Assembly (NCBI RefSeq): GCF_001677475.2
Contig: NZ_CP015229.1
Direction: 5' to 3' (one strand)
Origin: Escherichia coli
GTDB lineage: Bacteria; Pseudomonadota; Gammaproteobacteria; Enterobacterales; Enterobacteriaceae
Length of the DNA stretch: 64,000 nucleotides
Below, in pieces: positions 11,035 through 46,354 of the stretch (positions within the stretch are counted from its first letter, which is position 1; each line of letters begins with the position of its first letter). A program made the translations under genes and the position numbers. A model generated the notes under the pieces. It searched no databases. It saw nothing but the letters and a program-made list of their open reading frames with translations, and was not told where the DNA came from.

Positions 11035-11122
11035 GTTCACTGCCGTACAGGCAGCTTAGAAATTCACAGGTAACATACTCCACCCGCCCACCATGTTCAC
11101 TGCCGTACAGACAGATAAAATG
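11035..11122 (+). CRISPR. Orphan type I-F CRISPR remnant: two 28-bp repeats and one 32-bp spacer, no cas genes in the window
   Basis: Repeat 1 gttcactgccgtacaggcagcttagaaa (11035..11062); spacer ttcacaggtaacatactccacccgcccaccat (11063..11094); repeat 2 gttcactgccgtacagacagataaaatg (11095..11122), degenerate at its 3' end. The repeat matches the I-F (Ypest-type) consensus I recall. The clpA-infA interval is a known site of such arrays in E. coli. Confidence 0.8.
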
Positions 11123-11165: not shown

Positions 11166-11253
11166 TGGCGGTGAGGGGGGGATTCGAACCCCCGATACGT
11201 TGCCGTATACACACTTTCCAGGCGTGCTCCTTCAGCCACTCGGACACCTCACC
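11166..11253 (-). tRNA. serW: tRNA-Ser (anticodon GGA)
   Basis: Reverse complement reads GGTGAGGTGTCCGAGTGGCTGAAGGAGCACGCCTGGAAAGTGTGTATACGGCAACGTATCGGGGGTTCGAATCCCCCCCTCACCGCCA: acceptor stem, long variable arm typical of tRNA-Ser, T-arm GGTTCGAATCC, encoded CCA end. Confidence 0.9.
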
Positions 11254-25838: not shown

Positions 25839-25863
25839 TACCCAATTTTTCTGAATCTAAAAA

Positions 25864-25885
25864 GCGCCTGCGGGCGCTTTTTTTG
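25864..25885 (+). terminator. Intrinsic terminator downstream of serS
   Basis: gcgcc-tgcg-ggcgc hairpin immediately followed by ttttttt. Confidence 0.75.
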
Positions 25886-26076
25886 TCTCCCTTTGATACC
25901 GAACAATAATTACTCCTCACTTACACGTAATACTACTTTCGAGTGAAAATCTACCTATCTCTTTGATTTTCAAATTATTCGATGTATACAAACCTATATA
26001 GCGAGCTGCTATAGAAATAATTACACAATACGGTTTGTTACTGGAATCAATCGTGAGCAAGCTTGAGTGAGCCATT

Positions 26077-32138: not shown

Positions 32139-32347
32139 ATGAATTAACGCAGAGTGTGAACTTACTGTTTCACACTCTGCTTTTCTGTTTCTTCTCTCTG
32201 ACTTGCTTTTTTCAAAATTTTATTCGTTTCAAAATAAAATGTGCAGCAGGTTATAATTTTGCATTTCGCTATTTCCGCACTTCTTATTTGCCGCGCATAA
32301 TCCTTCGTTTTACAGATGCCCCTTTAATTTTGGCGAAGGATTTGTCT

Positions 32348-33778
32348 ATGGCTGGGAATGTTCAGGAAAAACAGCTGCGATGGTACAACATTGCGCTGAT
32401 GTCTTTTATCACTGTCTGGGGTTTTGGCAACGTTGTTAATAACTACGCCAACCAGGGGCTGGTGGTTGTTTTTTCATGGGTGTTTATCTTTGCGCTCTAT
32501 TTCACACCTTATGCGCTAATTGTTGGCCAGTTAGGCTCGACCTTCAAAGATGGGAAGGGCGGGGTCAGTACCTGGATTAAACACACGATGGGACCCGGAC
32601 TGGCTTACCTCGCCGCGTGGACCTACTGGGTAGTGCATATTCCCTATCTGGCACAAAAACCCCAGGCAATACTGATTGCGCTCGGTTGGGCGATGAAAGG
32701 CGACGGTTCGCTAATCAAAGAATATTCAGTCGTAGCGTTACAGGGGTTAACGCTGGTGCTGTTTATCTTCTTTATGTGGGTTGCTTCACGCGGTATGAAA
32801 TCGCTGAAAATCGTCGGTTCTGTGGCAGGGATTGCGATGTTTGTTATGTCGCTCCTGTATGTGGCGATGGCGGTAACCGCGCCTGCGATTACTGAAGTGC
32901 ATATTGCGACCACAAACATTACCTGGGAAACGTTCATTCCTCATATCGACTTTACCTACATTACCACTATTTCAATGCTGGTTTTCGCGGTTGGCGGAGC
33001 AGAGAAGATTTCTCCTTACGTTAATCAAACGCGCAACCCAGGAAAAGAATTTCCAAAAGGGATGTTATGCCTGGCGGTGATGGTTGCGGTTTGTGCCATT
33101 CTGGGCTCACTGGCGATGGGGATGATGTTTGACTCGCGTAATATCCCGGATGACTTAATGACTAACGGTCAGTATTACGCCTTTCAGAAGCTGGGCGAGT
33201 ATTACAACATGGGTAATACTTTAATGGTGATTTATGCCATTGCGAATACCCTGGGACAAGTAGCTGCGCTGGTATTCTCGATTGATGCACCGCTTAAAGT
33301 GTTATTAGGCGATGCCGACAGCAAATATATTCCAGCAAGTTTATGTCGTACCAACGCTTCTGGTACGCCCGTTAATGGCTATTTTCTGACCCTGGTGCTG
33401 GTGGCGATCCTGATAATGCTACCGACTCTCGGCATTGGTGATATGAACAATCTCTATAAATGGCTGTTGAATCTTAACTCGGTAGTGATGCCGCTGCGTT
33501 ATTTGTGGGTATTTGTTGCGTTTATTGCTGTCGTTCGCCTGGCGCAGAAATATAAACCAGAGTATGTCTTTATTCGTAATAAGCCGATGGCAATGACCGT
33601 CGGGATATGGTGTTTTGCCTTTACCGCTTTTGCATGCCTGACAGGAATTTTCCCTAAAATGGAAGCCTTCATTGCAGAGTGGACATTCCAATTGGCACTG
33701 AACATTACTACGCCATTTGTCCTCGTTGGACTGGGGCTGATATTCCCGCTGCTTGCACGTAAAACGAATACAAAATAG
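32348..33778 (+). CDS. ycaM: APC-family amino-acid/polyamine transporter YcaM
   Basis: ORF 32156..33778. Start taken at MAGNVQEKQLRWYNIALMSF (476 aa), preceded by aagga. Polytopic membrane protein. Confidence 0.88.
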   Translation: MAGNVQEKQLRWYNIALMSFITVWGFGNVVNNYANQGLVVVFSWVFIFALYFTPYALIVGQLGSTFKDGKGGVSTWIKHTMGPGLAYLAAWTYWVVHIPYLAQKPQAILIALGWAMKGDGSLIKEYSVVALQGLTLVLFIFFMWVASRGMKSLKIVGSVAGIAMFVMSLLYVAMAVTAPAITEVHIATTNITWETFIPHIDFTYITTISMLVFAVGGAEKISPYVNQTRNPGKEFPKGMLCLAVMVAVCAILGSLAMGMMFDSRNIPDDLMTNGQYYAFQKLGEYYNMGNTLMVIYAIANTLGQVAALVFSIDAPLKVLLGDADSKYIPASLCRTNASGTPVNGYFLTLVLVAILIMLPTLGIGDMNNLYKWLLNLNSVVMPLRYLWVFVAFIAVVRLAQKYKPEYVFIRNKPMAMTVGIWCFAFTAFACLTGIFPKMEAFIAEWTFQLALNITTPFVLVGLGLIFPLLARKTNTK

Positions 33779-33785
33779 TCATCAT

Positions 33786-33803
33786 GCCCCGGTTCGCCGG
33801 GGC
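33786..33803 (+). terminator. Hairpin just downstream of ycaM (weak terminator candidate)
   Basis: gccccgg-ttcg-ccggggc perfect inverted repeat 8 bp after the ycaM stop; no clear U-tract. Confidence 0.35.
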
Positions 33804-34875
33804 TGTGATATCAAATAGACTAAAATTAGATCAGGCCTGATAAGGCAAAAGTTAAGTTTTTCTTAAGAGATGAAAGAAAATCAACGCTACCGTGATAATA
33901 CGAATTTTAGTTATCGGAGACCATTATTTTTAGATATGGTGATAGTTTTAATTATTGGTTATTTTGCAAGTTATTATTTTGGGCTCTGGAGTAAACTCTT
34001 GCGCATAGTAATAACATGATTTTTACGGCTAAATTTTCAACAAAGATTGGTAATGTAAACTCGTATTTTTTGATTTGCATCAATGAATTCGCACGTTGCT
34101 AATTATGGTTAAATTTGCTGAGAATGATTGCGGTTATTGTTTGGATATGCAGATGGTATATTGATTCACTGGCGTAATATTCTGTAAAAATTATATTTTA
34201 TAGTGTTTTAATCTGGCAAAAATCATCTCCCGACAGAATCTTCTCATGCCTGGTGTAGTTCACAGTCTTTTGTTTTAAAAATAAAATAGTGCTCTAATGT
34301 TGCATCTATTGTTTTATCGAGCGTGTGTTCCTGAAAATATTTATCTGTTAGGTTGATGGACAAATTACAGCCTGGGCAGTGAAATTTTCACGATCACTTT
34401 CTGACTAAATCTTACTTTAAGGTTACTGATTAATATATTTGGGCTAAGAGAGTCGTATTACACATGTCTCAAAAAAGATAAATAAACAGAAAGGATTACT
34501 CACAATAGATACTAATAACACTTTTGGATAGTTATAGAGTAGAAGCCACGACTCAGCAGGATGTAGTAGCTGTGTTGTTATAAGTTAATTTTTTCATGGC
34601 TAAATTATTTCGTTGAAAAATTAACGAAAGGCGGTAGCGTGGGTGAAAGATACAAAATGAGTGTTACATATAACAATATTACCTTGGTTAAAATAGAATG
34701 AATGATAATCACCTGTGGAAATTAAGAAAAAAGTAATCTTCTCATCATGATATATTTTTTATATGGAATAGTGAAATTAATAAAATCATAAAGAGGAGAG
34801 CAACATCGTCTAATATACAGAACGTTATACGATATGATATGAAGCTATTAATAACATTTTAGTCAGAATACCAGT

Positions 34876-37224
34876 ATGTATAGCATTACCGAAAAATTAA
34901 ACTCAAGATTTAACACTGCGGTTATATTAGCTGTTACTGTCTATATTGTCTTGTCATTTATTACCGCAATTGATTTCCATAAAAAAATAGCAGAAAACTC
35001 TGCACAGATTAACCTTATACTCATCAATAACAATTTGAATAATTTTTTTTCTAAAGTTGAAAAAGAGGCTGATGCATTAAAAGATGCAATCTATCTGTTA
35101 CATGATGAAGATGAAATAAAGCGAGCAGTCCTTCATCGCATGAAAAAAATAGACGCGGTTAATTTAGTAGGGATAATGCTCAATAATGGAAAATATCTTA
35201 GCTTTATTCGAACTGAGAATGGGGAGGTAAAATTTCTGGGGCAATCAGAACCCGGTAAACCTTTTATTGGTGACGATGGTGATATCAGCGATAACTACTT
35301 TAATCCGGAATCACGCCCATGGAATAAATTACCGAGGGGGACTTATTCAAAATGGTCACCATGGTATAATTGTTATGGTATTGCCGGAAAAAAATGTTTT
35401 TCGTTTTCACTACGACCATCCGAAGAAGAAAAAAATTCATTTGCTTTGAAGTTAATACATCTGGATGTTGATGAAAAATATTTCAGTAATTTTTTAAATA
35501 AACTGGGTGGTGATTCTGATATTTTATTCATGGAACAAAACAAAAGGATTATGGTGGGTAATGAAAAATCAATGTTACATCTTATTGTCCGTGATTTATC
35601 GGGAAGTTATAACATAAGCAATAATAGTGGCAACTATACAGACAATGTTATCTCACTCCCCTGGCTTCCTGATGTCAGATTCCATTATTTCCACTATCAA
35701 AAATCAGAAGATACAAACATCAATAAATATTTTACACTGATGTTTTTATGTGGCTTGGTTTGTTTCTGTTTATTATGGTATATCGTTGAAAAAATAACAA
35801 GAAAAATCAAAGGTGAATCCAGCAAACTGATAGAACATCTGAAAAAATTAGCTAATTCAGTATATCGCAACGACACAATTGATATTGTGCAAAATGACAG
35901 TGGTGAGATTGTTGAACTCAAAAAGATCATTAATAATATCAGCGATAAATACAAGGAGCGTATGGACCGATTACTTAATCTTGTGTCCTATGAACAAGGA
36001 AGTTGCTTTTATATTAATAAGGCTATTATTGAAACTAATAATAAAACCTATTTGGCAATTGGTATGCTTTGCATCTATGGATTAGAGTTTGTTGAAGCGG
36101 TATATGGAAATCAGAAATTTCATGAGATTTTTAATGATATAAAATCTAAGATATCACAAAAATATTCAAAATATTGTGATATCGTAAAAATCTCAACTGA
36201 AACATACTTGTTGCTATGTCACACTGATTGCGAAGAGTTCATCGAAAAATTATCGGTTTTAAACTTTCCTGAACATATATTTTGCATAAGAAATATATAT
36301 ATCCACAAGATTGCCATTTGCGAAAATTTTTCAGGGGAAAATGTATCGATTTATGAAAGGAAACTGAAACTGGCATTAACAGCTATGCGGGAAAATAAAG
36401 AATCTGAATTTATTTTTTATGATGACATCAAAGTCCATGAACTTGATCAAAAGGTCTGGGTGGCAGGAAATATAAAAAAAGCGATTGCGAGTAATGAGCT
36501 TTATTTAGTATATCAACCGATTGTTGATATGGATAATAATAGGGTTGTAGGCGCAGAGGCGTTATGTCGCTGGTTGTCCTGCGAAAATGGGGTAATACCG
36601 CCATCAATTTTTGTACCTGTTGCTGAAGAAATAGGATTAATTAAAGAACTGGGTGATTTTGTTCTCGAAACAGCTATTAGCGAATTTGGGGTGTTTAGTT
36701 GTGAATATGAGGTTGCTAACGATTTTCTCCTGCATATCAATGTTTCTCCCTGGCAATTAAATGAATTTGACTTCCACACTCGTGTTCTTACTTTAATTAA
36801 TGCATTTGGTGTAAATGTTGAACAAATCTGCCTGGAGATCACCGAATCAGCAGTAAAAGATATAAATGATAGCTTTTACAATAATATAAATATTTTAAAA
36901 GAAAATGGTATCAAGATTTCCCTTGATGATTTCGGAAGTGGATTAGCTGACCTGAAAAAACTTTATAAAGTAAGACCTGATAGCATTAAAATTGATTCAG
37001 AGTTTACCTCTGGTATTTTCGATGAAACTAACAAGGTTGTATATTTTATATCCAATCTTGCTCGTGAAGAAAATATGCCGGTAATAGCTGAAGGTGTTGA
37101 AACTGAAAGTCAGGCTAGAGAGTTGCAAAAATTAGGATTTTCTCATGTTCAGGGATACTTATACCAGAAACCGTTACCGTTTTCAGAATGGCATATAGAC
37201 AACAAACCGAAAAAAAGAAAATAA
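34876..37224 (+). CDS. Membrane-bound c-di-GMP phosphodiesterase: TM, periplasmic sensor domain, TM, cytoplasmic linker region, EAL domain
   Basis: 782 aa. Hydrophobic helices near residues 15-35 and ~285-305. EAL-domain motifs all present: QPIVD, EALCRW, NVSP, LEITES, DDFGSG, KIDSEF, AEGVETE, QGYLY. No GG(D/E)EF signature upstream of the EAL domain. Confidence 0.85.
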   Translation: MYSITEKLNSRFNTAVILAVTVYIVLSFITAIDFHKKIAENSAQINLILINNNLNNFFSKVEKEADALKDAIYLLHDEDEIKRAVLHRMKKIDAVNLVGIMLNNGKYLSFIRTENGEVKFLGQSEPGKPFIGDDGDISDNYFNPESRPWNKLPRGTYSKWSPWYNCYGIAGKKCFSFSLRPSEEEKNSFALKLIHLDVDEKYFSNFLNKLGGDSDILFMEQNKRIMVGNEKSMLHLIVRDLSGSYNISNNSGNYTDNVISLPWLPDVRFHYFHYQKSEDTNINKYFTLMFLCGLVCFCLLWYIVEKITRKIKGESSKLIEHLKKLANSVYRNDTIDIVQNDSGEIVELKKIINNISDKYKERMDRLLNLVSYEQGSCFYINKAIIETNNKTYLAIGMLCIYGLEFVEAVYGNQKFHEIFNDIKSKISQKYSKYCDIVKISTETYLLLCHTDCEEFIEKLSVLNFPEHIFCIRNIYIHKIAICENFSGENVSIYERKLKLALTAMRENKESEFIFYDDIKVHELDQKVWVAGNIKKAIASNELYLVYQPIVDMDNNRVVGAEALCRWLSCENGVIPPSIFVPVAEEIGLIKELGDFVLETAISEFGVFSCEYEVANDFLLHINVSPWQLNEFDFHTRVLTLINAFGVNVEQICLEITESAVKDINDSFYNNINILKENGIKISLDDFGSGLADLKKLYKVRPDSIKIDSEFTSGIFDETNKVVYFISNLAREENMPVIAEGVETESQARELQKLGFSHVQGYLYQKPLPFSEWHIDNKPKKRK

Positions 37225-37228
37225 AGCA

Positions 37229-38569
37229 ATGTTCAAATATAAAAAAAAGGCGGCAGTGATCTGTTTTTTGTATTTTTTGTGCGTCGCTGTAGTAACTTGT
37301 TATTTGTACACCATTCATGTTAAAGGCCGTATAAATTCGGTGAAGGTATCTATTGTAGATAGTGGGCTTGCAATAGCTAATGTTTCTGAGTATCGCCGCT
37401 CAGTATCTAATAATATATTTTATGAACTTGAGGTTTCGCCAGAAGAGTTGTTAAAAAAAATACGCAATAGCTTTGCTGGCTATGAAAACCCTGGATATTT
37501 GTATGATCTCGGTCCTTATATGATTAGCGATGGTAAATGTATCAAAGTCACAACGAAAGGAGATAATTTTTGTGACGACATAGTTTCCTCTATTAGGGTA
37601 ATTAATGAATTTGAAAGAGGCATTATTAGCTTAAAAAATAAGTGCTATGTTTATTATGCTCATCCCATTGCAAAACGTACAAGTTTGATATCAGTGGTAG
37701 ATCCTGAACGTTATTTATCTTTGATAAGAAATCAATCAGGGGAACGAGAAGATATCTATGTATCATTTTATGATATTAATGATAATGAAAAGAAAATCGC
37801 AGGTGATGATTTTTTGATAAATGATGCAGTATTTGAGATGTCAGCTATCACTCTGTCGTATTCTTATCTTCCAGAAATGATGTTTATTGTTGCCTATAAA
37901 AAAAGTAAATATCTATATATATGTGCGTTTTTCGTTTTTGCATCGGCAATATCTGCAGTCATAATGTATGTTTATTATGTTAAATTATTGCGTGATATTA
38001 TAAATAAGGGTAGATTGGAAAAAGAATCTATATTGTCGAATCATCAATATGATTTACGTGGAGAAAATCTATTCTTTAATACGGAAGAGATTAATGCAAT
38101 TCGAGAGATATATGACTTTGGCACTTGTGATGCATTAACCAGGGCTTCTGGTCGCCGGAGTTTTGATAAAGAAATCAAGATACTGAGAAAAAATTTTGGC
38201 TACCTGTGTCTATTTGATGTGGATAAATTTAAAACCATTAATGATAAGTTTGGTCATTTATTTGGTGATGAAGTACTCATCAAACTTGTTAATATCATTA
38301 AAGAAGAGTTACCCCGTCGTGAAGGGGAAATATACCGGTTTGGCGGTGATGAGTTTGCTATTATTTATTATGAGAAAGATAAAAATAAGCTATCAAGAAT
38401 TTTGCACAGAGTTGTTCATTTCGCCATTGGTGGGTTAAATTGTAGTTGCAGTATAGGTGTTGCCAGCACAGATGAGTGCATGAATAACATTGAACGGTTG
38501 AAATTGCTGGCAGATGAACGGTTATATAAAAGTAAGCAAAATGGCCGAGCACAGATAACGTGGTGTTGA
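37229..38569 (+). CDS. Membrane-bound diguanylate cyclase: TM, periplasmic sensor domain, TM, GGDEF domain
   Basis: 446 aa, starting 5 bp after the upstream stop. Two hydrophobic helices flank a ~200-aa periplasmic segment. GGDEF-domain motifs: DALT..RR, LFDVDKFKTINDKFGH, GDEVL, RFGGDEFAIIY, ADERLYKSKQNGR. No RxxD inhibitory site immediately upstream of GGDEF. Confidence 0.85.
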   Translation: MFKYKKKAAVICFLYFLCVAVVTCYLYTIHVKGRINSVKVSIVDSGLAIANVSEYRRSVSNNIFYELEVSPEELLKKIRNSFAGYENPGYLYDLGPYMISDGKCIKVTTKGDNFCDDIVSSIRVINEFERGIISLKNKCYVYYAHPIAKRTSLISVVDPERYLSLIRNQSGEREDIYVSFYDINDNEKKIAGDDFLINDAVFEMSAITLSYSYLPEMMFIVAYKKSKYLYICAFFVFASAISAVIMYVYYVKLLRDIINKGRLEKESILSNHQYDLRGENLFFNTEEINAIREIYDFGTCDALTRASGRRSFDKEIKILRKNFGYLCLFDVDKFKTINDKFGHLFGDEVLIKLVNIIKEELPRREGEIYRFGGDEFAIIYYEKDKNKLSRILHRVVHFAIGGLNCSCSIGVASTDECMNNIERLKLLADERLYKSKQNGRAQITWC

Positions 38570-38653: not shown

Positions 38654-40768
38654 ATGCTCATAAAAAATAAAGTAATATTAAACAAAATCCTTTTGGTTGT
38701 TGCTATACTGCTATGTTTTGTTTTTTTATCAATTGTTGAACAGCCCCTTGGATTTTATCAACAAACATTATTTTCAATTATTATTTGTATCGCTGCTATC
38801 TTCCTTAATTTTCTCAAAGGAAGGATAATTACTCTGATTCTAATGGGTGTTGGAATACTCATATCATCCCGATATCTATGGTGGCGTTACTCTTCTTCAG
38901 TAATCCTGGATGAATTTCCAGACTGTTTATTTTCAGTCACGCTATTAGTTGCTGAGACGTATGCATGGTTTGTTTTATTACTTGGTTACTTTCAGGTTTG
39001 CTTCCCGCTGAACCGAGAAAGTATACCCTTACCAGAGAATAAAGAAGAATGGCCCGTTGTTGATATATTAATCCCCACATATAACGAACCCTTTACAGTC
39101 GTTAAGAATACAGTTTATGGTGCGTTGGCCTTAGACTGGCCAACGGATAAATTAAATATCTGGCTCCTTGATGATGGCGCCAGGGACGAGTTCAGGAAAT
39201 TCGCGAACGAGTTAGGTATTTACTATGTCGCAAGAGAAACACATGAACATGCTAAGGCCGGAAATATAAATAATGCGCTTAAAATAGCTAATGGCGAATT
39301 TGTTGCTATTTTCGATTGCGATCATATACCCTCGGTTTCTTTTTTAAAGAAAACGATGGGCTGGTTTATCGCCGATAAAAAATTATCGATGTTGCAAACA
39401 CCACATCATTTTTTTTCCCCCGACCCTTTTGAGCGAAATTTGGGGCAGTTTCGGCAAAAGCCAAATGAAGGACACCTTTTTTATGGGTTAATCCAGAATG
39501 GTACGGATACATGGAATGCTTCATTTTTTTGTGGTTCATGTGCAATCATCCGTAGATCTGCTCTGGATGAGGTTGGAGGCATTGCAGTCGAAACAGTAAC
39601 AGAAGATGCGCATACGTCGTTACGCTTGCATCGTGCAGGTTATAGCTCTGCGTATCTTCGCTATCCTCTGGCTGCCGGGCTAGCCACCGAAACATTGTCT
39701 GCTCATATTGGACAACGGATTCGGTGGGCTCGAGGCATGATTCAAATCTTGCGTATTGACAATCCATTATTGGGCAAGGGGCTGACATTATCACAGCGCC
39801 TTTGCTATCTCAGCAGCATGATGCATTTTTTATCAGGTGTGCCACGCCTGATTTTCTTGTTCGCACCGTTATGTCCTATTTTCTTTTCGGTCAATCTGAT
39901 CGATGCATCAGTTGCAGATATTATGTCTTATGTTTTACCTTATCTATTTGTTATTATTTTAACTAATTCAAGAGTACAAGGTAAATACAGACATTCATTC
40001 TGGAATGAGATTTATGAAATGGTTCTGGCCTGGTATATTACGCTACCAACGCTTGTAGCTTTACTTGCGCCAGCAAAAGGTCGTTTTAACGTTACGGCCA
40101 AAGGGGGACTGATAAAAAATAAGTTTGTTGACTGGCGAATTTCCTATCCCTATCTTATTTTTGCTATTTTAAATGTAATCGGGCTGATAATAGGTGTTAT
40201 TAATGTTTATAGTTTGCAAGGGCATATTGCCATCTTGAATTTGTTTTGTTTAATCTGGTTGTTTTATAACGCAATTATTATTGGCGCAACTTTGGCTGTT
40301 TCTATTGAACAAAAGCAGGTGCGTTTTTCTCCCCGTATTGATGTTTCTTTCAAGGGCGTTATACAACTGGATGATGGACGGCGCTATCCTTGTTCTGTTC
40401 TTGATTTTTCCGAAGGAGGATTAGGTGTAATCCTTGATAATATCTCCGACGTAAAAGATATGCTTAAAGCACAGCAATTGTCTCTTTATCTGGATGATAG
40501 CAACGGGAAATGTGATATTCCGGTAGAAATAGTTCATGCTTACAATAATAAAATTGGTCTGAAGATTATGCCAATGAGTTATGAACAAAGTGTTAATTAT
40601 GTAAGAGCAACGTTTTCTCGTGATTCATTATGGCAAGAGTGGAATAATAAAATTAGACGGGACAATATTCTAAAGAGTTTTTTTGAAATATGTTTCATCT
40701 CTCTGAAAGGTTATTGCAATATGGTTTTTTATATTCTGCGGACACTGAAAAGCAGTTCCAAAAGTTAG
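38654..40768 (+). CDS. BcsA-like family-2 processive beta-glycosyltransferase with C-terminal PilZ domain (c-di-GMP-gated synthase)
   Basis: ORF 38579..40768 begins with TTG; first in-frame ATG is at 38654 (704 aa). Catalytic motifs: DDGARDE, FDCDH, QTPHHFFSPDPFERN, FFCGSCA, TEDAHTSLRLH, QRIRWARG. PilZ motifs RFSPRID and DFSEGGLG. Confidence 0.85.
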   Translation: MLIKNKVILNKILLVVAILLCFVFLSIVEQPLGFYQQTLFSIIICIAAIFLNFLKGRIITLILMGVGILISSRYLWWRYSSSVILDEFPDCLFSVTLLVAETYAWFVLLLGYFQVCFPLNRESIPLPENKEEWPVVDILIPTYNEPFTVVKNTVYGALALDWPTDKLNIWLLDDGARDEFRKFANELGIYYVARETHEHAKAGNINNALKIANGEFVAIFDCDHIPSVSFLKKTMGWFIADKKLSMLQTPHHFFSPDPFERNLGQFRQKPNEGHLFYGLIQNGTDTWNASFFCGSCAIIRRSALDEVGGIAVETVTEDAHTSLRLHRAGYSSAYLRYPLAAGLATETLSAHIGQRIRWARGMIQILRIDNPLLGKGLTLSQRLCYLSSMMHFLSGVPRLIFLFAPLCPIFFSVNLIDASVADIMSYVLPYLFVIILTNSRVQGKYRHSFWNEIYEMVLAWYITLPTLVALLAPAKGRFNVTAKGGLIKNKFVDWRISYPYLIFAILNVIGLIIGVINVYSLQGHIAILNLFCLIWLFYNAIIIGATLAVSIEQKQVRFSPRIDVSFKGVIQLDDGRRYPCSVLDFSEGGLGVILDNISDVKDMLKAQQLSLYLDDSNGKCDIPVEIVHAYNNKIGLKIMPMSYEQSVNYVRATFSRDSLWQEWNNKIRRDNILKSFFEICFISLKGYCNMVFYILRTLKSSSKS

Positions 40769-40833: not shown

Positions 40834-43134
40834 ATGGAAAGAAAATTTTTGAGATTAAGTGCTGCGATAATTGGCTTGGGGTTATTATGTTTTTACCAGG
40901 CAAATACAGCATCGGCTACAGATACAGTAACCAGTAAGTCTTCCTCTGGAGAAGTATTACCATCTATCCAGAAGACAAATATCTCTGCTTATGAGAAAGA
41001 GTCGTCTCGCCATTTTAAACTCCCATTTACACAAATCGCACCAGCTCCAGGAAACATAGTCCTGAATGGCGTTAACCCACAGGGGCAAATTGAGTTTGGT
41101 ATGCGTAGCGATGAAATAGTATCAGAAGCAAAACTAAAACTTGAATACACTACATCACCGTCGCTGATCCCTGTCCAGTCACAGCTTAAGGTCTATCTTA
41201 ATGACGAGTTGATGGGGGTATTGCCGATTACCAAAGAACAACTGGGGAAGAAAACGCTGGCGGAAATAACTCTTAACCCATTGTATTTTTCTGATTTTAA
41301 TCGCTTGCGCCTCGAATTAATTAGTCACTACCAGAGCGCCTGTGAAAACCCGACCAGCAGCAATTTGTGGCTTGATATTGGACGTACCAGTGAACTTGAA
41401 CTGGTATTTCAGAGACTTAATCTGAAAAATGATCTTTCATATTTTCCTGTACCGTTTTTTGACCCGCGAGATAACCGCACTAATACATTGCCGATGGTTT
41501 TTGCAGGTACTCCTGAGACTGGTTTGCAGCAGGCATCAGCTATTGTCGCTTCGTGGTTTGGTGCGCAATCTGGCTGGCGTGGTCACCGATTTCCGGTTTT
41601 CTATAACCAGTTACCGGAAAGTAATGCAGTGGTCTTTGCCACTAACAATAGACGCCCGGACTTTCTGCGCGAGCATCCGTTGGTGAATGCGCCTGTTATT
41701 AAAATGATCAGTCATCCACAAAATCCTTTTATCAAATTGCTGGTACTTTTGGGCCGCGATGACAAAGATTTATTACAGGCGGCAAAAGGCCTTGCACAGG
41801 GAAATATACTTTTTCGCGGCGATAGTGTGATCGTAAATGAAGTGACGCCGTTACTGCCGCGTAAACCTTATGATGCGCCAAACTGGGTACGCACTGACCG
41901 TCCTGTAACTTTCGCAGAGCTTAAAAATTATGAAGGGCAGTTACAGGCAAGTGGCCTGGAGTCTGCGGCAATTAATGTTTCATTTAATTTGCCACCTGAT
42001 CTTTTTCTATTGCGTAATCGTGGGGTTGATATGAAGATTAACTATCGCTATACCACGCCAACGATAGGTGGTTCACGCATGGATGTCAGCCTTAATAACC
42101 AGTACCTTGAATCTTTCCGGCTAAGTCCGCAATCTGCTACCGATAGATTGTTGTTACGTTTACCGTTATTGCAAGAATTGTTGGATGGTAATAATGGAAT
42201 TACCATTCCTGCGCTGACGTTGGGGGCGCTTAATCAATTGCGATTTAATTTTGAGTACATTAATACAATGCCGCGTTCTGATGCTGATAGCTGTATTATT
42301 TCCAGGCCTCTAAAAAATCATGCGGTTATTGCAGATGATTCCACTATCGATTTTTCAAAGTACCATCACTTTATCGCAATGCCAGATTTACGCGCTTTTG
42401 CCAGCTCAGGCTTTCCATTTAGCCGCATGGCCGATCTATCAGAAACGGTTGTGGTTATGCCTGAAAATCCTGGTACAACGCAAGTTGAAACATTATTAAA
42501 TACCCTTGGACTGATTGGTGCTCAAACTGGATTTCCGGCAATTAATCTGACAATTACTGATGATATAGGTTCTGTCCAGGGTAAGGATTCAGATATTCTG
42601 CTTATAGGAACACTTCCGCAAGAATTTGCAGATAAACAGCAAATTAATCTGCTCATTGAGGCAACAACGAGTTGGGTAAAAAGCCCAATGCGGAACACTG
42701 ATTACGCAAAAATTATGGCAGATAAAAACGATCAAAAACCTGAAATACAAACAACTATAAATTCCCCATTGCCAATGGCGGCGATAGTTGGTTTTCAGTC
42801 CCCATATCATGCCCAACGTAGCGTAATTGCTTTAATGTCCGAGGGATCACGCGGCGATACGCTACTCAACAATGCGTTAATTAATAGTACAAAACGCGGC
42901 AATATTTTTGGTTCAGTCGCGGTTATTCGCGAATCTGGCGTCAATAGTTTACAGGTTGGAGATACTTATTACGTTGGGCATCTCCCCTGGATTGAACGAG
43001 TGCAATATGTGTTAGCCAGACACCCCATTCTACTGGCAGTCCTGGCAACTCTCAGTGTGGTGCTATTGGCGTGGGTAGTATGGCGTCTGTTACGTAACAT
43101 TAGTCGCCGTCGTCTGAACCCTCATCAACAGTAA
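40834..43134 (+). CDS. BcsB-like periplasmic synthase subunit with C-terminal membrane anchor
   Basis: ORF 40798..43134 begins with TTG; start taken at MERKFLRLSAAIIGLGLLCFYQANTASA (signal-peptide-like). C-terminal single TM helix ILLAVLATLSVVLLAWVVWRLL followed by basic residues, as in BcsB. Confidence 0.8.
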   Translation: MERKFLRLSAAIIGLGLLCFYQANTASATDTVTSKSSSGEVLPSIQKTNISAYEKESSRHFKLPFTQIAPAPGNIVLNGVNPQGQIEFGMRSDEIVSEAKLKLEYTTSPSLIPVQSQLKVYLNDELMGVLPITKEQLGKKTLAEITLNPLYFSDFNRLRLELISHYQSACENPTSSNLWLDIGRTSELELVFQRLNLKNDLSYFPVPFFDPRDNRTNTLPMVFAGTPETGLQQASAIVASWFGAQSGWRGHRFPVFYNQLPESNAVVFATNNRRPDFLREHPLVNAPVIKMISHPQNPFIKLLVLLGRDDKDLLQAAKGLAQGNILFRGDSVIVNEVTPLLPRKPYDAPNWVRTDRPVTFAELKNYEGQLQASGLESAAINVSFNLPPDLFLLRNRGVDMKINYRYTTPTIGGSRMDVSLNNQYLESFRLSPQSATDRLLLRLPLLQELLDGNNGITIPALTLGALNQLRFNFEYINTMPRSDADSCIISRPLKNHAVIADDSTIDFSKYHHFIAMPDLRAFASSGFPFSRMADLSETVVVMPENPGTTQVETLLNTLGLIGAQTGFPAINLTITDDIGSVQGKDSDILLIGTLPQEFADKQQINLLIEATTSWVKSPMRNTDYAKIMADKNDQKPEIQTTINSPLPMAAIVGFQSPYHAQRSVIALMSEGSRGDTLLNNALINSTKRGNIFGSVAVIRESGVNSLQVGDTYYVGHLPWIERVQYVLARHPILLAVLATLSVVLLAWVVWRLLRNISRRRLNPHQQ

Positions 43135-43246: not shown

Positions 43247-46200
43247 ATGTACAAATTCACCCTAAATTTACTCACAATATCCCTTGGTTTGGCGGTAATG
43301 TCGATGGCGAAAGCCACACCAACTGTACACAAGCTGTTAATGGCGCAGATTCGGTTAGGCGAAGACATTCATCGTGAAGATCTGGTCGAACAGTCGCTTT
43401 ATCGTCTTGAATTGGCGGAACCTGATAATCCAGATGTCGTTGCGGCGCGTTTTCGCTATCTGCTGCGTAAGGGGGATATTGAAGGTGCGCAAAAACAACT
43501 TGCCAGACTTTCCCTGTTCGCTCCTGATTCAAAAATATATAAAGCATCGCGCACGGCCATGCGACTTTCTTCGCCTGAGGGGCGTCAGGCACTGCAAATG
43601 GCACGCTTACAAGCTATCTCCGGGCGACATAAAGAGGCTATCGACAGTTACGACAAGCTATTTAACGGGGCACCGCCAGATATCGAAATGGCGCTGGAAT
43701 ACTGGGGGGCAATGACGCAAATTTCCTCCCGTCGCAACGAAGCGATTCGTCAGTTGAAAATACTTAATATTGATAATCCTGACTCTGGTGCCATATTTGG
43801 GGCGCTGGGGCAGGCGTATTCCCAGAATGGCGATCGCGCTAATGCGGTGGCGAATCTGGAAAAAGCCCTCGCACTGGATCCGCACAGCAGCAACAACGAC
43901 AAATGGAACAGTCTGCTGAAGGTGAATCGCTACTGGCTGGCGATCCAGCAGGGCGATGCTGCGCTGAAAGCCAATAATCCTGACCGCGCAGAGCGTCTGT
44001 TCCAGCAGGCGCGCAATGTCGATAACGCCGACAGCTATGCGGTGCTGGGGCTGGGCGATGTGGCGATGGCGCGCAAAGATTACCCCGCCGCCGAACGTTA
44101 TTATCAGCAGACGCTGCGTATGGACAGCGGCAACACCAACGCCGTGCGCGGGCTGGCGAATCTTTATCGCCAGCAGTCGCCGGAAAAAGCCGAAGCGTTT
44201 ATTGCCTCGCTCTCTGCCAGCCAGCGGCGCAGCGTTGATGACATCGAACGCAGCCTGCAAAACACGCGTTTATCACAGCAGGCAGAGGCACTGGAAAATC
44301 AGGGTAAATGGGCGCAGGCGGCAGCACTTCAGCGCCAGCGACTGGCGCTCGATCCCGGCAGTGTGTGGATTACTTACCGGCTTTCGCAGGATCTCTGGCA
44401 GGCCGGACAACGCAGCCAGGCCGATACGTTAATGCGCCATCTGGCGCAGCAGAAGCCGAACGACCCGGAGCAGGTTTACGCTTACGGGCTGTATCTCTCT
44501 GGTCATGACCAGGACAGAGCGGCGCTGGCGCATATCAACAGCCTGCCGCGCGCGCAATGGAACAGCAATATTCAGGAGCTGGTTAATCGACTGCAAAGCG
44601 ATCAGGTGCTGGAAACCGCTAATCGCCTGCGAGAAAGCGGCAAAGAAGCTGAAGCGGAAGCGATGCTGCGCCAACAACCACCTTCCACGCGTATTGATCT
44701 CACGCTGGCTGACTGGGCGCAACAACGACGTGATTATACCGCCGCCCGCGCTGCATATCAGAATGTCCTGATGCGGGAGCCAACTAACGCCGATGCCATT
44801 CTTGGTCTGACGGAAGTGGATATTGCTGCCGGTGACAAAGCGGCAGCACGTAGCCAGCTGGCGAAACTGCCTGCCACCGATAACGCGTCGCTGAACACTC
44901 AGCGGCGCGTGGCGCTGGCACAGGCGCAGCTTGGCGATACCGCAGCGGCGCAGCAGACGTTTAATAAGTTGATCCCGCAGGCAAAATCTCAGCCGCCGTC
45001 GATGGAAAGCGCGATGGTGCTGCGCGACGGTGCGAAGTTTGAAGCGCAGGCGGGCGATCCAAAGCAGGCGCTGGAAACCTACAAAGACGCCATGGTCGCA
45101 TCCGGTGTGACTACGACGCGTCCGCAGGATAACGACACCTTTACCCGACTGACCCGTAACGATGAGAAAGATGACTGGCTGAAGCGCGGTGTGCGCAGCG
45201 ACGCGGCAGATCTCTATCGTCAGCAGGATCTTAACGTCACCCTTGAGCACGACTACTGGGGATCGAGTGGCACCGGTGGTTACTCCGACCTGAAAGCGCA
45301 CACTACCATGTTGCAGGTGGATGCTCCGTATTCTGACGGGAGGATGTTCTTTCGCAGTGATTTCGTCAATATGAACGTCGGCAGTTTCTCCACTAATGCC
45401 GATGGCAAATGGGATGACAACTGGGGCACCTGTACATTACAGGACTGTAGTGGCAACCGCAGCCAGTCGGACTCCGGTGCCAGCGTGGCGGTCGGCTGGC
45501 GAAATGACGTCTGGAGCTGGGATATCGGTACCACGCCGATGGGCTTCAACGTGGTGGATGTGGTCGGCGGCATCAGTTACAGCGATGATATCGGGCCGCT
45601 GGGTTACACCGTTAACGCCCACCGTCGGCCCATCTCCAGTTCTTTGCTGGCCTTTGGTGGGCAAAAAGACTCTCCGGGCAATACCGGGAAAAAATGGGGT
45701 GGCGTGCGTGCCGACGGCGTGGGGCTAAGCCTGAGCTACGATAAAGGTGAAGCAAACGGCGTCTGGGCATCGCTTAGCGGTGACCAGTTAACCGGTAAAA
45801 ATGTCGAAGATAACTGGCGCGTGCGCTGGATGACGGGCTATTACTATAAGGTCATTAACCAGAACAATCGCCGCGTCACAATCGGCCTGAACAACATGAT
45901 CTGGCATTACGACAAAGATCTGAGTGGCTACTCACTCGGTCAGGGCGGTTACTACAGTCCGCAGGAATACCTGTCGTTTGCCATACCGGTGATGTGGCGG
46001 GAGCGCACGGAAAACTGGTCGTGGGAGCTGGGTGCATCTGGCTCGTGGTCGCATTCGCGCACCAAAACCATGCCGCGTTATCCGCTGATGAACCTGATCC
46101 CGACGGACTGGAAAGAGGATGCCGCCAGCCAGACCAACGACGGCGGCAGCAGTCAGGGCTTTGGCTACACGGCGCGGGCGTTACTTGAGCGTCGCGTCAC

Positions 46201-46354
46201 GTCCAACTGGTTTGTCGGCACGGCGATTGATATCCAGCAGGCGAAAGATTATGCGCCAAGCCATTTCCTGCTCTACGTGCGGTATTCCGCCGCCGGATGG
46301 CAGGGCGACATGGATTTACCGCCGCAGCCGCTGATACCTTACGCCGACTGGTAA
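43247..46354 (+). CDS. BcsC-like outer-membrane export component (signal peptide, TPR repeats, C-terminal beta-barrel)
   Basis: 1035 aa. Signal peptide MYKFTLNLLTISLGLAVMSMAKA; SD gaggcagg upstream. Many TPR-like repeats (e.g. GALGQAYSQNGDRANAVANLEKALALDP); C-terminal Gly/aromatic-rich region ending in W (...LIPYADW). GC content rises sharply after the first ~0.6 kb. Confidence 0.85.
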   Translation: MYKFTLNLLTISLGLAVMSMAKATPTVHKLLMAQIRLGEDIHREDLVEQSLYRLELAEPDNPDVVAARFRYLLRKGDIEGAQKQLARLSLFAPDSKIYKASRTAMRLSSPEGRQALQMARLQAISGRHKEAIDSYDKLFNGAPPDIEMALEYWGAMTQISSRRNEAIRQLKILNIDNPDSGAIFGALGQAYSQNGDRANAVANLEKALALDPHSSNNDKWNSLLKVNRYWLAIQQGDAALKANNPDRAERLFQQARNVDNADSYAVLGLGDVAMARKDYPAAERYYQQTLRMDSGNTNAVRGLANLYRQQSPEKAEAFIASLSASQRRSVDDIERSLQNTRLSQQAEALENQGKWAQAAALQRQRLALDPGSVWITYRLSQDLWQAGQRSQADTLMRHLAQQKPNDPEQVYAYGLYLSGHDQDRAALAHINSLPRAQWNSNIQELVNRLQSDQVLETANRLRESGKEAEAEAMLRQQPPSTRIDLTLADWAQQRRDYTAARAAYQNVLMREPTNADAILGLTEVDIAAGDKAAARSQLAKLPATDNASLNTQRRVALAQAQLGDTAAAQQTFNKLIPQAKSQPPSMESAMVLRDGAKFEAQAGDPKQALETYKDAMVASGVTTTRPQDNDTFTRLTRNDEKDDWLKRGVRSDAADLYRQQDLNVTLEHDYWGSSGTGGYSDLKAHTTMLQVDAPYSDGRMFFRSDFVNMNVGSFSTNADGKWDDNWGTCTLQDCSGNRSQSDSGASVAVGWRNDVWSWDIGTTPMGFNVVDVVGGISYSDDIGPLGYTVNAHRRPISSSLLAFGGQKDSPGNTGKKWGGVRADGVGLSLSYDKGEANGVWASLSGDQLTGKNVEDNWRVRWMTGYYYKVINQNNRRVTIGLNNMIWHYDKDLSGYSLGQGGYYSPQEYLSFAIPVMWRERTENWSWELGASGSWSHSRTKTMPRYPLMNLIPTDWKEDAASQTNDGGSSQGFGYTARALLERRVTSNWFVGTAIDIQQAKDYAPSHFLLYVRYSAAGWQGDMDLPPQPLIPYADW

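Follow-up and report, generated by a model that had tools for sequence, protein, structure and literature searches.

The 64-kb stretch of Escherichia coli DNA analyzed here (the window) carries, between ycaM and pflA, a horizontally acquired operon encoding a CHASE9-EAL protein, a GAPES2-GGDEF protein and BcsA-, BcsB- and BcsC-like cellulose synthesis proteins. The operon is preceded by a long untranslated leader (positions 33779-34875). Within this leader we found a perfect copy of the operon polarity suppressor (ops) element, GGCGGTAGCGTG, at 34630-34641 on the plus strand, the decisive feature that a first-pass annotation of the same DNA had missed. Judging from its sequence features, we consider it likely that the region acts as a long 5′ leader that places the operon under the control of RfaH. 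This would be a known kind of control at a new place, an accessory cellulose operon, and in a literature search we found no report that connects bcs clusters with RfaH or ops.

An exact search of the window identified the element, matching at 12 of 12 positions, as the sole exact copy in the 64 kb. It has the 12 nt that the ops consensus, GGCGGTAGnnTG, requires and is identical to the ops12 sequence of Zuber et al. (PMC5995543). The site, on the non-template strand, shares its orientation with all five operon genes and is found 234 nt upstream of the first ATG, inside a leader that contains no conserved open reading frame (ORF). All RfaH-controlled operons have a 12-nt ops in their leaders, where RfaH is recruited via the non-template strand of the paused elongation complex; positions 3-8 are the bases needed for contact with RfaH (PMC5995543). 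Strain CFT073 has 42 ops-like sites, and the 8 located in non-template leader regions are exactly the 8 with an RfaH chromatin immunoprecipitation signal (PMC9765446). The rfaH locus lies outside the window; of 5426 complete E. coli genomes, 5425 have it.

A different explanation would treat the leader as an AT-rich, H-NS-silenced spacer with a promoter, in which ops is a pause site or a chance string and RfaH has no part. Such a role could draw on the fact that ops doubles as a consensus pause signal (PMC5995543), and the composition of the leader (31.7% GC) is also in line with it. The H-NS motif TCGATAAATT gives 7 loose matches (at most 2 mismatches) in the 1.1-kb leader, compared with about 1.4 per kb in the window, an enrichment that goes along with AT content. 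However, an exact G/C-rich 12-mer is very unlikely to occur by chance in such DNA; from base frequencies we estimate about 5e-6 for 1.1 kb at 32% GC. Furthermore, ops is the best-conserved string across otherwise near-random leaders, and the RfaH-contact positions 3-8 are kept even in a plasmid variant described below. Silencing by H-NS is also compatible with RfaH control, since known RfaH targets are H-NS-bound: in CFT073, all RfaH-bound loci are bound by H-NS/StpA as well (PMC9765446). We therefore regard a spacer without RfaH as very unlikely, and H-NS silencing of an RfaH-controlled leader as plausible, both from its composition and by analogy with the CFT073 targets.

The conservation of ops was followed across the window, strains E69 and N3, the MS 21-1 class, Escherichia fergusonii, related plasmid clusters and the core paralogues of K-12. 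The leader occurs in nine of the 5426 complete E. coli genomes, with 94% identity in two of them and about 75% in the other seven; the MS 21-1 class makes up seven of these nine island-bearing genomes. The closest relative found is strain E69 (98%), and a scan of a genome collection with the sensor domain returned only E. coli E69, with a near-identical copy. When the ops block and the upstream conserved block of the leader were sought elsewhere in E. coli genomes, both were present only in the nine island-bearing genomes. A metagenome scan with CGAAAGGCGGTAGCGTGGG recovered the same three leader variants; its other matches fall in contigs of 51-67% GC with unrelated flanks, and we read these as chance.

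In E. fergusonii, the EAL-GGDEF-BcsA-BcsB module occurs at a different locus, after a TetR-family gene, and is preceded by a gap of about 1085 nt without a called gene. Its EAL protein is 63% identical to that of the window (69% for the genes), and the two leaders are 52% identical overall, which is near random for AT-rich DNA. The collinear conserved islands between them are a weak block at 33863-33980, a promoter-like site at 34259-34287, a 37-nt block at 34607-34643 and the start-codon region, and the longest exact string that they have in common is the 20-mer ACGAAAGGCGGTAGCGTGGG. The ops element is invariant in the leaders of E69, N3, the MS 21-1 class and E. fergusonii. The first-pass annotation had proposed a long regulatory leader with a promoter, and this is supported by a leader that moves with the module to another site in E. 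fergusonii and by a promoter-like site present in all lineages. In contrast to the module, the core paralogues pdeI-dgcI of K-12 have an upstream gap of 177 nt and no ops, indicating that the long ops leader is specific to the island.

Related yliE/yliF-bcsAB clusters are found on IncHI1B, IncF and IncN plasmids. Their leaders contain GGCGGTAGCGTT, an 11 of 12 match to ops, about 270 nt before the EAL gene (L022 1819-1830; L023 and L025 8560-8571; L024 6113-6124). The longest string common to the plasmid and window leaders, GGCGGTAGCGT, is the first 11 nt of this plasmid site, and the site holds the only GGCGGTAG on the operon strand of each locus. The plasmid variant retains positions 3-8; only position 12 is changed, to T. 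Replacement of G12 by C is reported to remove the pause at U11 and to keep recruitment in vitro (PMC5995543). At the protein level, the plasmid and window clusters are about 38% identical for EAL and 73% for BcsA, indicating that the cyclic di-GMP (c-di-GMP) genes and the synthase genes have had different histories.

The plasmid setting raises the question of whether ops is read mainly by an RfaH paralogue encoded on a mobile element, at least in the plasmid clusters. Plasmid RfaH-like activators that use ops-like sites, such as PrfaH of IncX, have been described (PMC11880322), and the altered position 12 of the plasmid site could reflect such a reader. The chromosomal copies, however, have the exact ops of E. 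coli RfaH, no NusG-like gene is annotated within or beside the island, and rfaH is universal in E. coli, as noted above. A paralogue as the main reader is, if anything, less likely still than the spacer, and the preferred reader would be the RfaH of the host.

Two further observations concern the plasmid records. In some plasmids, an IS1 either separates bcsA from the c-di-GMP genes or truncates EAL (L022 5816-6513; L025 10517-11214), an insertion that would cut bcsAB off from the leader ops. A 55-kb record labelled as a plasmid, L021 (NZ_CP148400.1), carries the core chromosomal segment moeAB-gsiABCD-pdeI-dgcI-rimO and could be a misfiled fragment of the chromosome.

Immediately upstream of ops, folding identified a hairpin, TTTCGTTGA-AAAA-TTAACGAAA, at 34608-34629 on the plus strand. 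Its 9-bp stem, UUUCGUUGA/UUAACGAAA (about -7 kcal/mol), ends directly at ops with a gap of 0 nt, and an equally long stem abutted ops in 0.8% of shuffles (P = 0.008). A 6-bp stem core is invariant in four variants, and the loop differs among them (AAAA, ATGA, TAAA and TAAAAAC). In the close variants, all substitutions within the hairpin are confined to the 4-nt loop (AAAA, AUGA, UAAA), while in E. fergusonii the 6-bp core is retained and the loop has 7 nt. In the plasmid leaders, a 10-bp hairpin of unrelated sequence ends 1 nt before ops (P = 0.003), and the waaQ JUMPstart of K-12 has a 5-bp stem, also 1 nt from ops. A stem-loop 0-1 nt 5′ of ops thus recurs in three unrelated sequence classes (chromosomal, plasmid and waaQ JUMPstart), and the structural claim for the hairpin rests on its conserved arms with variable loops together with this recurrence.

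Pause hairpins act 11-12 nt behind the RNA 3′ end, and the 3′ base of the window hairpin (34629) is 11 nt from U11 (34640), the pause nucleotide of ops. We infer that the hairpin probably modulates the ops pause, a role that the stem-loop of canonical JUMPstart elements may also have. A bolder proposal goes further: hairpin and ops would together make up an RfaH loading site of a class distinct from JUMPstart, in which a hairpin 11-12 nt behind U11 is required and turns a backtracking pause into a hairpin-stabilized one; the conserved blocks at 33849-33980 would bind a regulator coupling initiation to an environmental cue, and matrix synthesis would become a regulated arm of the RfaH regulon. 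We consider this extended scheme speculative and rather unlikely.

The hairpin could also be viewed, together with the G-rich block, as part of a new structured cis-regulatory RNA, for example a c-di-GMP sensor. Its conserved stem with a variable loop would suit such a structure, as would an operon that encodes c-di-GMP turnover enzymes and a PilZ synthase. However, Rfam 15 covariance models, including those of the c-di-GMP riboswitches, gave no match in the leader (leader scans at E ≤ 10, the whole window at the gathering score), the best hit being to a CRISPR repeat model at E = 0.17, well below its gathering score. The predicted 597-nt 5′ untranslated region (UTR) folds no better than shuffled sequences (z = -1.1), covariation is absent, and the conserved block of only about 37 nt is fully explained by the hairpin plus ops. 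The regulatory RNA suggested in the first-pass annotation is supported by neither the Rfam nor the folding results, and a structured sensor appears highly improbable in comparison with an ops leader.

With respect to transcription initiation, a consensus scan identified a sigma-70 promoter-like site, TTCACA-N17-TAAAAT, at 34259-34287 on the plus strand (10/12). The same hexamers and spacing occur, collinear and with a diverged spacer, in MS 21-1 (L002 12556-12584) and E. fergusonii (L004 5434-5462), and the site is a top-scoring plus-strand match in all three lineages; MS 21-1 has one further plus-strand site that also scores 10/12. Transcription is predicted to start near 34294, which would give a 5′ UTR of about 580-597 nt with ops about 335 nt into it. 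The strongest promoter-like match of the leader lies on the minus strand (34219-34190, 11/12); its hexamers are not kept in E69, N3 or MS 21-1, and we treated it as chance.

The operon downstream of the leader is about 11.5 kb long, AT-rich, horizontally acquired and of the envelope-polysaccharide type, which is the kind of operon that RfaH typically controls. All of its genes lie on the plus strand. Gene 1 (34876-37224) encodes a CHASE9-EAL phosphodiesterase, a PdeI/YliE paralogue that is 40% identical to PdeI of K-12, and gene 2 (37229-38569) a DgcI/YliF-like GAPES2-GGDEF protein. They are followed by genes for a BcsA-like cellulose synthase with a PilZ domain (38654-40768), a BcsB-like protein (40834-43134) and a GC-rich BcsC-like outer-membrane subunit (43247-46354). 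The first four island genes have a GC content of 33-43%, compared with 50-60% for the BcsC-like gene, which the E. fergusonii module lacks. Identity to N3 in the initial 150 nt of each gene is likewise mosaic (bcsC 99%, bcsB 90%, bcsA 94%, EAL 97%).

The translation starts of these genes fit the RfaH class as well. The first three have no Shine-Dalgarno sequence, with duplex energies of 0 or higher (EAL +0.2, GGDEF +0.2 and bcsA +0.4 kcal/mol), bcsB has a weak one (-2.7 kcal/mol), and bcsC reaches -5.6 kcal/mol; the core genes in the window range from -2.8 to -13.8 kcal/mol. A missing Shine-Dalgarno sequence is a stated property of RfaH targets (PMC5995543, PMC7819879). At the level of sequence, then, the locus shows the features of the ops/RfaH class that we tested, with the promoter upstream of ops as a prediction.

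From the behavior of characterized leader ops elements, we propose the following course of events. Transcription would start upstream of ops, most likely at TTCACA-N17-TAAAAT near 34290, and RNA polymerase would pause at U11 (34640) of ops, possibly helped by the adjacent hairpin. The exposed hairpin of the non-template ops DNA would then recruit RfaH, which would stay on the polymerase and exclude or replace NusG. Across the 11.5 kb of AT-rich operon, probably coated with H-NS, RfaH would suppress Rho-dependent and H-NS-stimulated termination, and it may also aid the loading of ribosomes on the first genes, which have no Shine-Dalgarno sequence of their own.

Several points weigh against control by RfaH. 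The Rfam JUMPstart model RF01707 (39 nt) does not match the window element, with no hit at E ≤ 10 in scans of 2.6 kb and of 161 nt, while the waaQ control of K-12 scored 55.2 bits. The 234 nt between ops and the ATG exceed the 40-67 nt found at wzx, kps and rfa but fall short of the roughly 600 nt at hly (PMC9765446), an intermediate distance. The leader contains more G than C (skew +0.14), unlike a classical Rho utilization (rut) site, which is C-rich and G-poor. In the plasmid variant, ops position 12 is T, whereas every validated E. coli target has G there (PMC5995543). The hairpin stem shows no compensatory changes within its lineage (alifold), as it never varies. Lastly, the transcription start is a prediction, and the promoter scan as a whole does not exceed the shuffled expectation (8 sites, 6.8 expected).

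The same annotation had drawn attention to a 27-codon ORF at 33936-34019 (+) for a hydrophobic peptide, perhaps a small membrane protein. This ORF is present, as the 3′ portion of a longer frame of 49 codons (33870-34019), and both strands hold several ORFs of 20-43 codons. A functional peptide encoded at 33936-34019 or 33870-34019 could point to the hydrophobic C-terminal half of the 49-codon ORF, which is intact in the window, E69 and N3, and to the unusual conservation of the underlying DNA. The ORF is intact only in these three, however. In the MS 21-1 class (7 of 9 genomes) the ATG is replaced by GCA, the upstream frame contains stops and the frame ends after 16 codons, and in E. fergusonii no such frame is present. 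A comparison of the peptide with 5.8 billion proteins matched only its own cluster, so there is no wider family, and the conservation is at the level of DNA rather than protein. The small ORF is not kept at homologous loci and is unsupported as a gene; a functional peptide is the least probable of the explanations weighed here.

The extent and composition of the leader agree with the first-pass description of a long, AT-rich gap. According to the ORF list of the window, 33779-34875 contains no ORF of 60 aa or more on either strand, and its 1097 nt make it the largest ORF-free gap of the window, where the second internal gap measures 419 nt. Its GC content of 31.7% compares with 48.7% for the window, and 1.7% of windows of the same length are equally AT-rich. 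On one side the leader borders on the stop codon of ycaM (33776-33778), on the other on the start codon of the CHASE9-EAL gene, an ATG at 34876. Homology to island-free E. coli stops exactly at the ycaM stop codon, indicating that the whole gap is part of the inserted island. Its assignment as the untranslated leader of the operon (+) follows from the ORF-free gap and its GC content, together with the leader of the same length in E. fergusonii.

Further upstream in the leader, cross-lineage alignment revealed conserved blocks at 33849-33980 (+). Three blocks in this interval, including a 42-nt stretch at 33939-33980, are identical between leaders of 73% overall identity, and the alignment to E. 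fergusonii is weak yet significant (63.6% over 118 nt, E = 7e-5). The distance from the blocks to the conserved promoter-like site downstream is about 280-410 nt, and the non-conserved small ORF overlies the 42-mer. The interval may be a region bound by a regulator, or it may hold a second promoter. By-eye comparison of the blocks with a sigma-54 promoter, a CsgD box and a Fur box, and of ACGCTACCG (about 33885) with ops for pairing, gave matches that were weak or not conserved.

Other features of the leader were less informative. A GC-rich inverted repeat, GCCCCGG-TTCG-CCGGGGC, read from the sequence at 33786-33803 directly after the ycaM stop, is kept in N3 and MS 21-1. It is not followed by a T-run and was not called by the terminator scan, which found no terminator in the leader; a repeat search of the leader returned trivial repeats only. 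An ORF at 34639-34701 (+) starts at a GTG formed by ops positions 10-12, with the Shine-Dalgarno-like AAAGGCGG upstream (-6.9 kcal/mol). As a gene it was rejected: its length is 20 codons here but 11, 29 and 24 codons in the remaining chromosomal variants, the encoded sequences are unrelated, and in the plasmid variant GTT stands in place of the GTG.

We also noted several features elsewhere in the window. A near-match to ops, GGCGATAGTGTG, lies at 41818-41829 (+) inside the BcsB-like gene and carries an A at position 5, a substitution that is reported to prevent the recruitment of RfaH; given this change and its coding location, it is probably a chance occurrence. The genes upstream of the island are ftsK-lolA-rarA-serS-dmsABC-ycaC-ycaD-ycaM, and pflA-pflB follow downstream. 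The mechanical ORF of ycaM (32156-33778) begins at a GTG at 32156, whereas in relatives the annotated start corresponds to 32348; translation of the additional 64 codons is improbable. The enterobacterial small RNA (sRNA) STnc130 gave a strong Rfam match (140 bits) at 25852-25986 (-), just upstream of dmsA. The CRISPR-DR4 repeat model gave a single 28-nt match (50 bits) at 11035-11062 (+), about 100 nt from a tRNA gene at 11169-11253 (-).

If our reading is correct, the RfaH regulon would grow beyond lipopolysaccharide core, O-antigen, capsule, haemolysin, conjugation pili and type VI secretion system regulators to include accessory cellulose clusters, which shuttle between large plasmids and the chromosomes of Escherichia, along with their own c-di-GMP phosphodiesterase/cyclase pair. 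It would explain how an 11.5-kb operon of 32-43% GC, poor in Shine-Dalgarno sequences, is expressed in a host policed by H-NS and Rho, and rfaH mutants would be predicted to lose this matrix polymer. The locus also offers three natural versions of a hairpin abutting ops (JUMPstart, chromosomal and plasmid) for asking whether pausing at ops depends in part on the RNA stem-loop. In annotations, the leader would best be labelled as ops-bearing rather than as a small protein gene.

Among known systems, the island fits the description of the accessory bcsA2/bcsA3 clusters with adjacent YliE/YliF homologues reported from Escherichia chromosomes and plasmids in a 2025 preprint (bioRxiv 10.1101/2025.05.09.653004), specifically the Escherichia-restricted chromosomal bcsABC with YliE/YliF homologues; on this description the window synthase is a candidate member of class BcsA3. 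The preprint mentions RfaH 0 times and does not treat the leaders. The brp operon of Vibrio vulnificus is likewise a c-di-GMP-linked exopolysaccharide operon, and ops and rut sites in its leader suggest anti-termination by RfaH (as summarized in PMC7819879). The organism, genes and polysaccharide differ from ours, and the likeness noted here is one of description.

The JUMPstart element (Hobbs & Reeves 1994; RF01707), whose conserved stem-loop was noted by Weinberg et al. (PMC2864571), has the same architecture as the window element, with a stem-loop immediately 5′ of ops. The sequences are unrelated: the window stem, UUUCGU/ACGAAA, is AU-rich, whereas that of JUMPstart is cUGGu/gCCAg with a AGCUGUAA loop. 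As far as sequence can tell, the window element is JUMPstart-like in architecture and not a member of the Rfam JUMPstart family. In K-12, the annotated sRNA RirA, which derives from the waaQ 5′ UTR and contains JUMPstart, is a leader fragment that includes ops. There, ops has GCTTTTTT behind it and folds into a hairpin that resembles a terminator; downstream of the window ops there is neither a T-run nor a terminator, so a RirA-like sRNA is not expected here.

The closest parallel is provided by the RfaH-dependent ops leaders of E. coli and Salmonella (waaQ/rfa, rfb/wzx, kps, hly, tra and wza). These have the identical 12-nt GGCGGTAGCGTG on the non-template strand of an untranslated leader, and they too precede long, AT-rich, acquired cell-envelope operons whose first genes have no Shine-Dalgarno sequence. 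The window operon differs from the described RfaH regulon in being an accessory cellulose cluster headed by c-di-GMP turnover genes.

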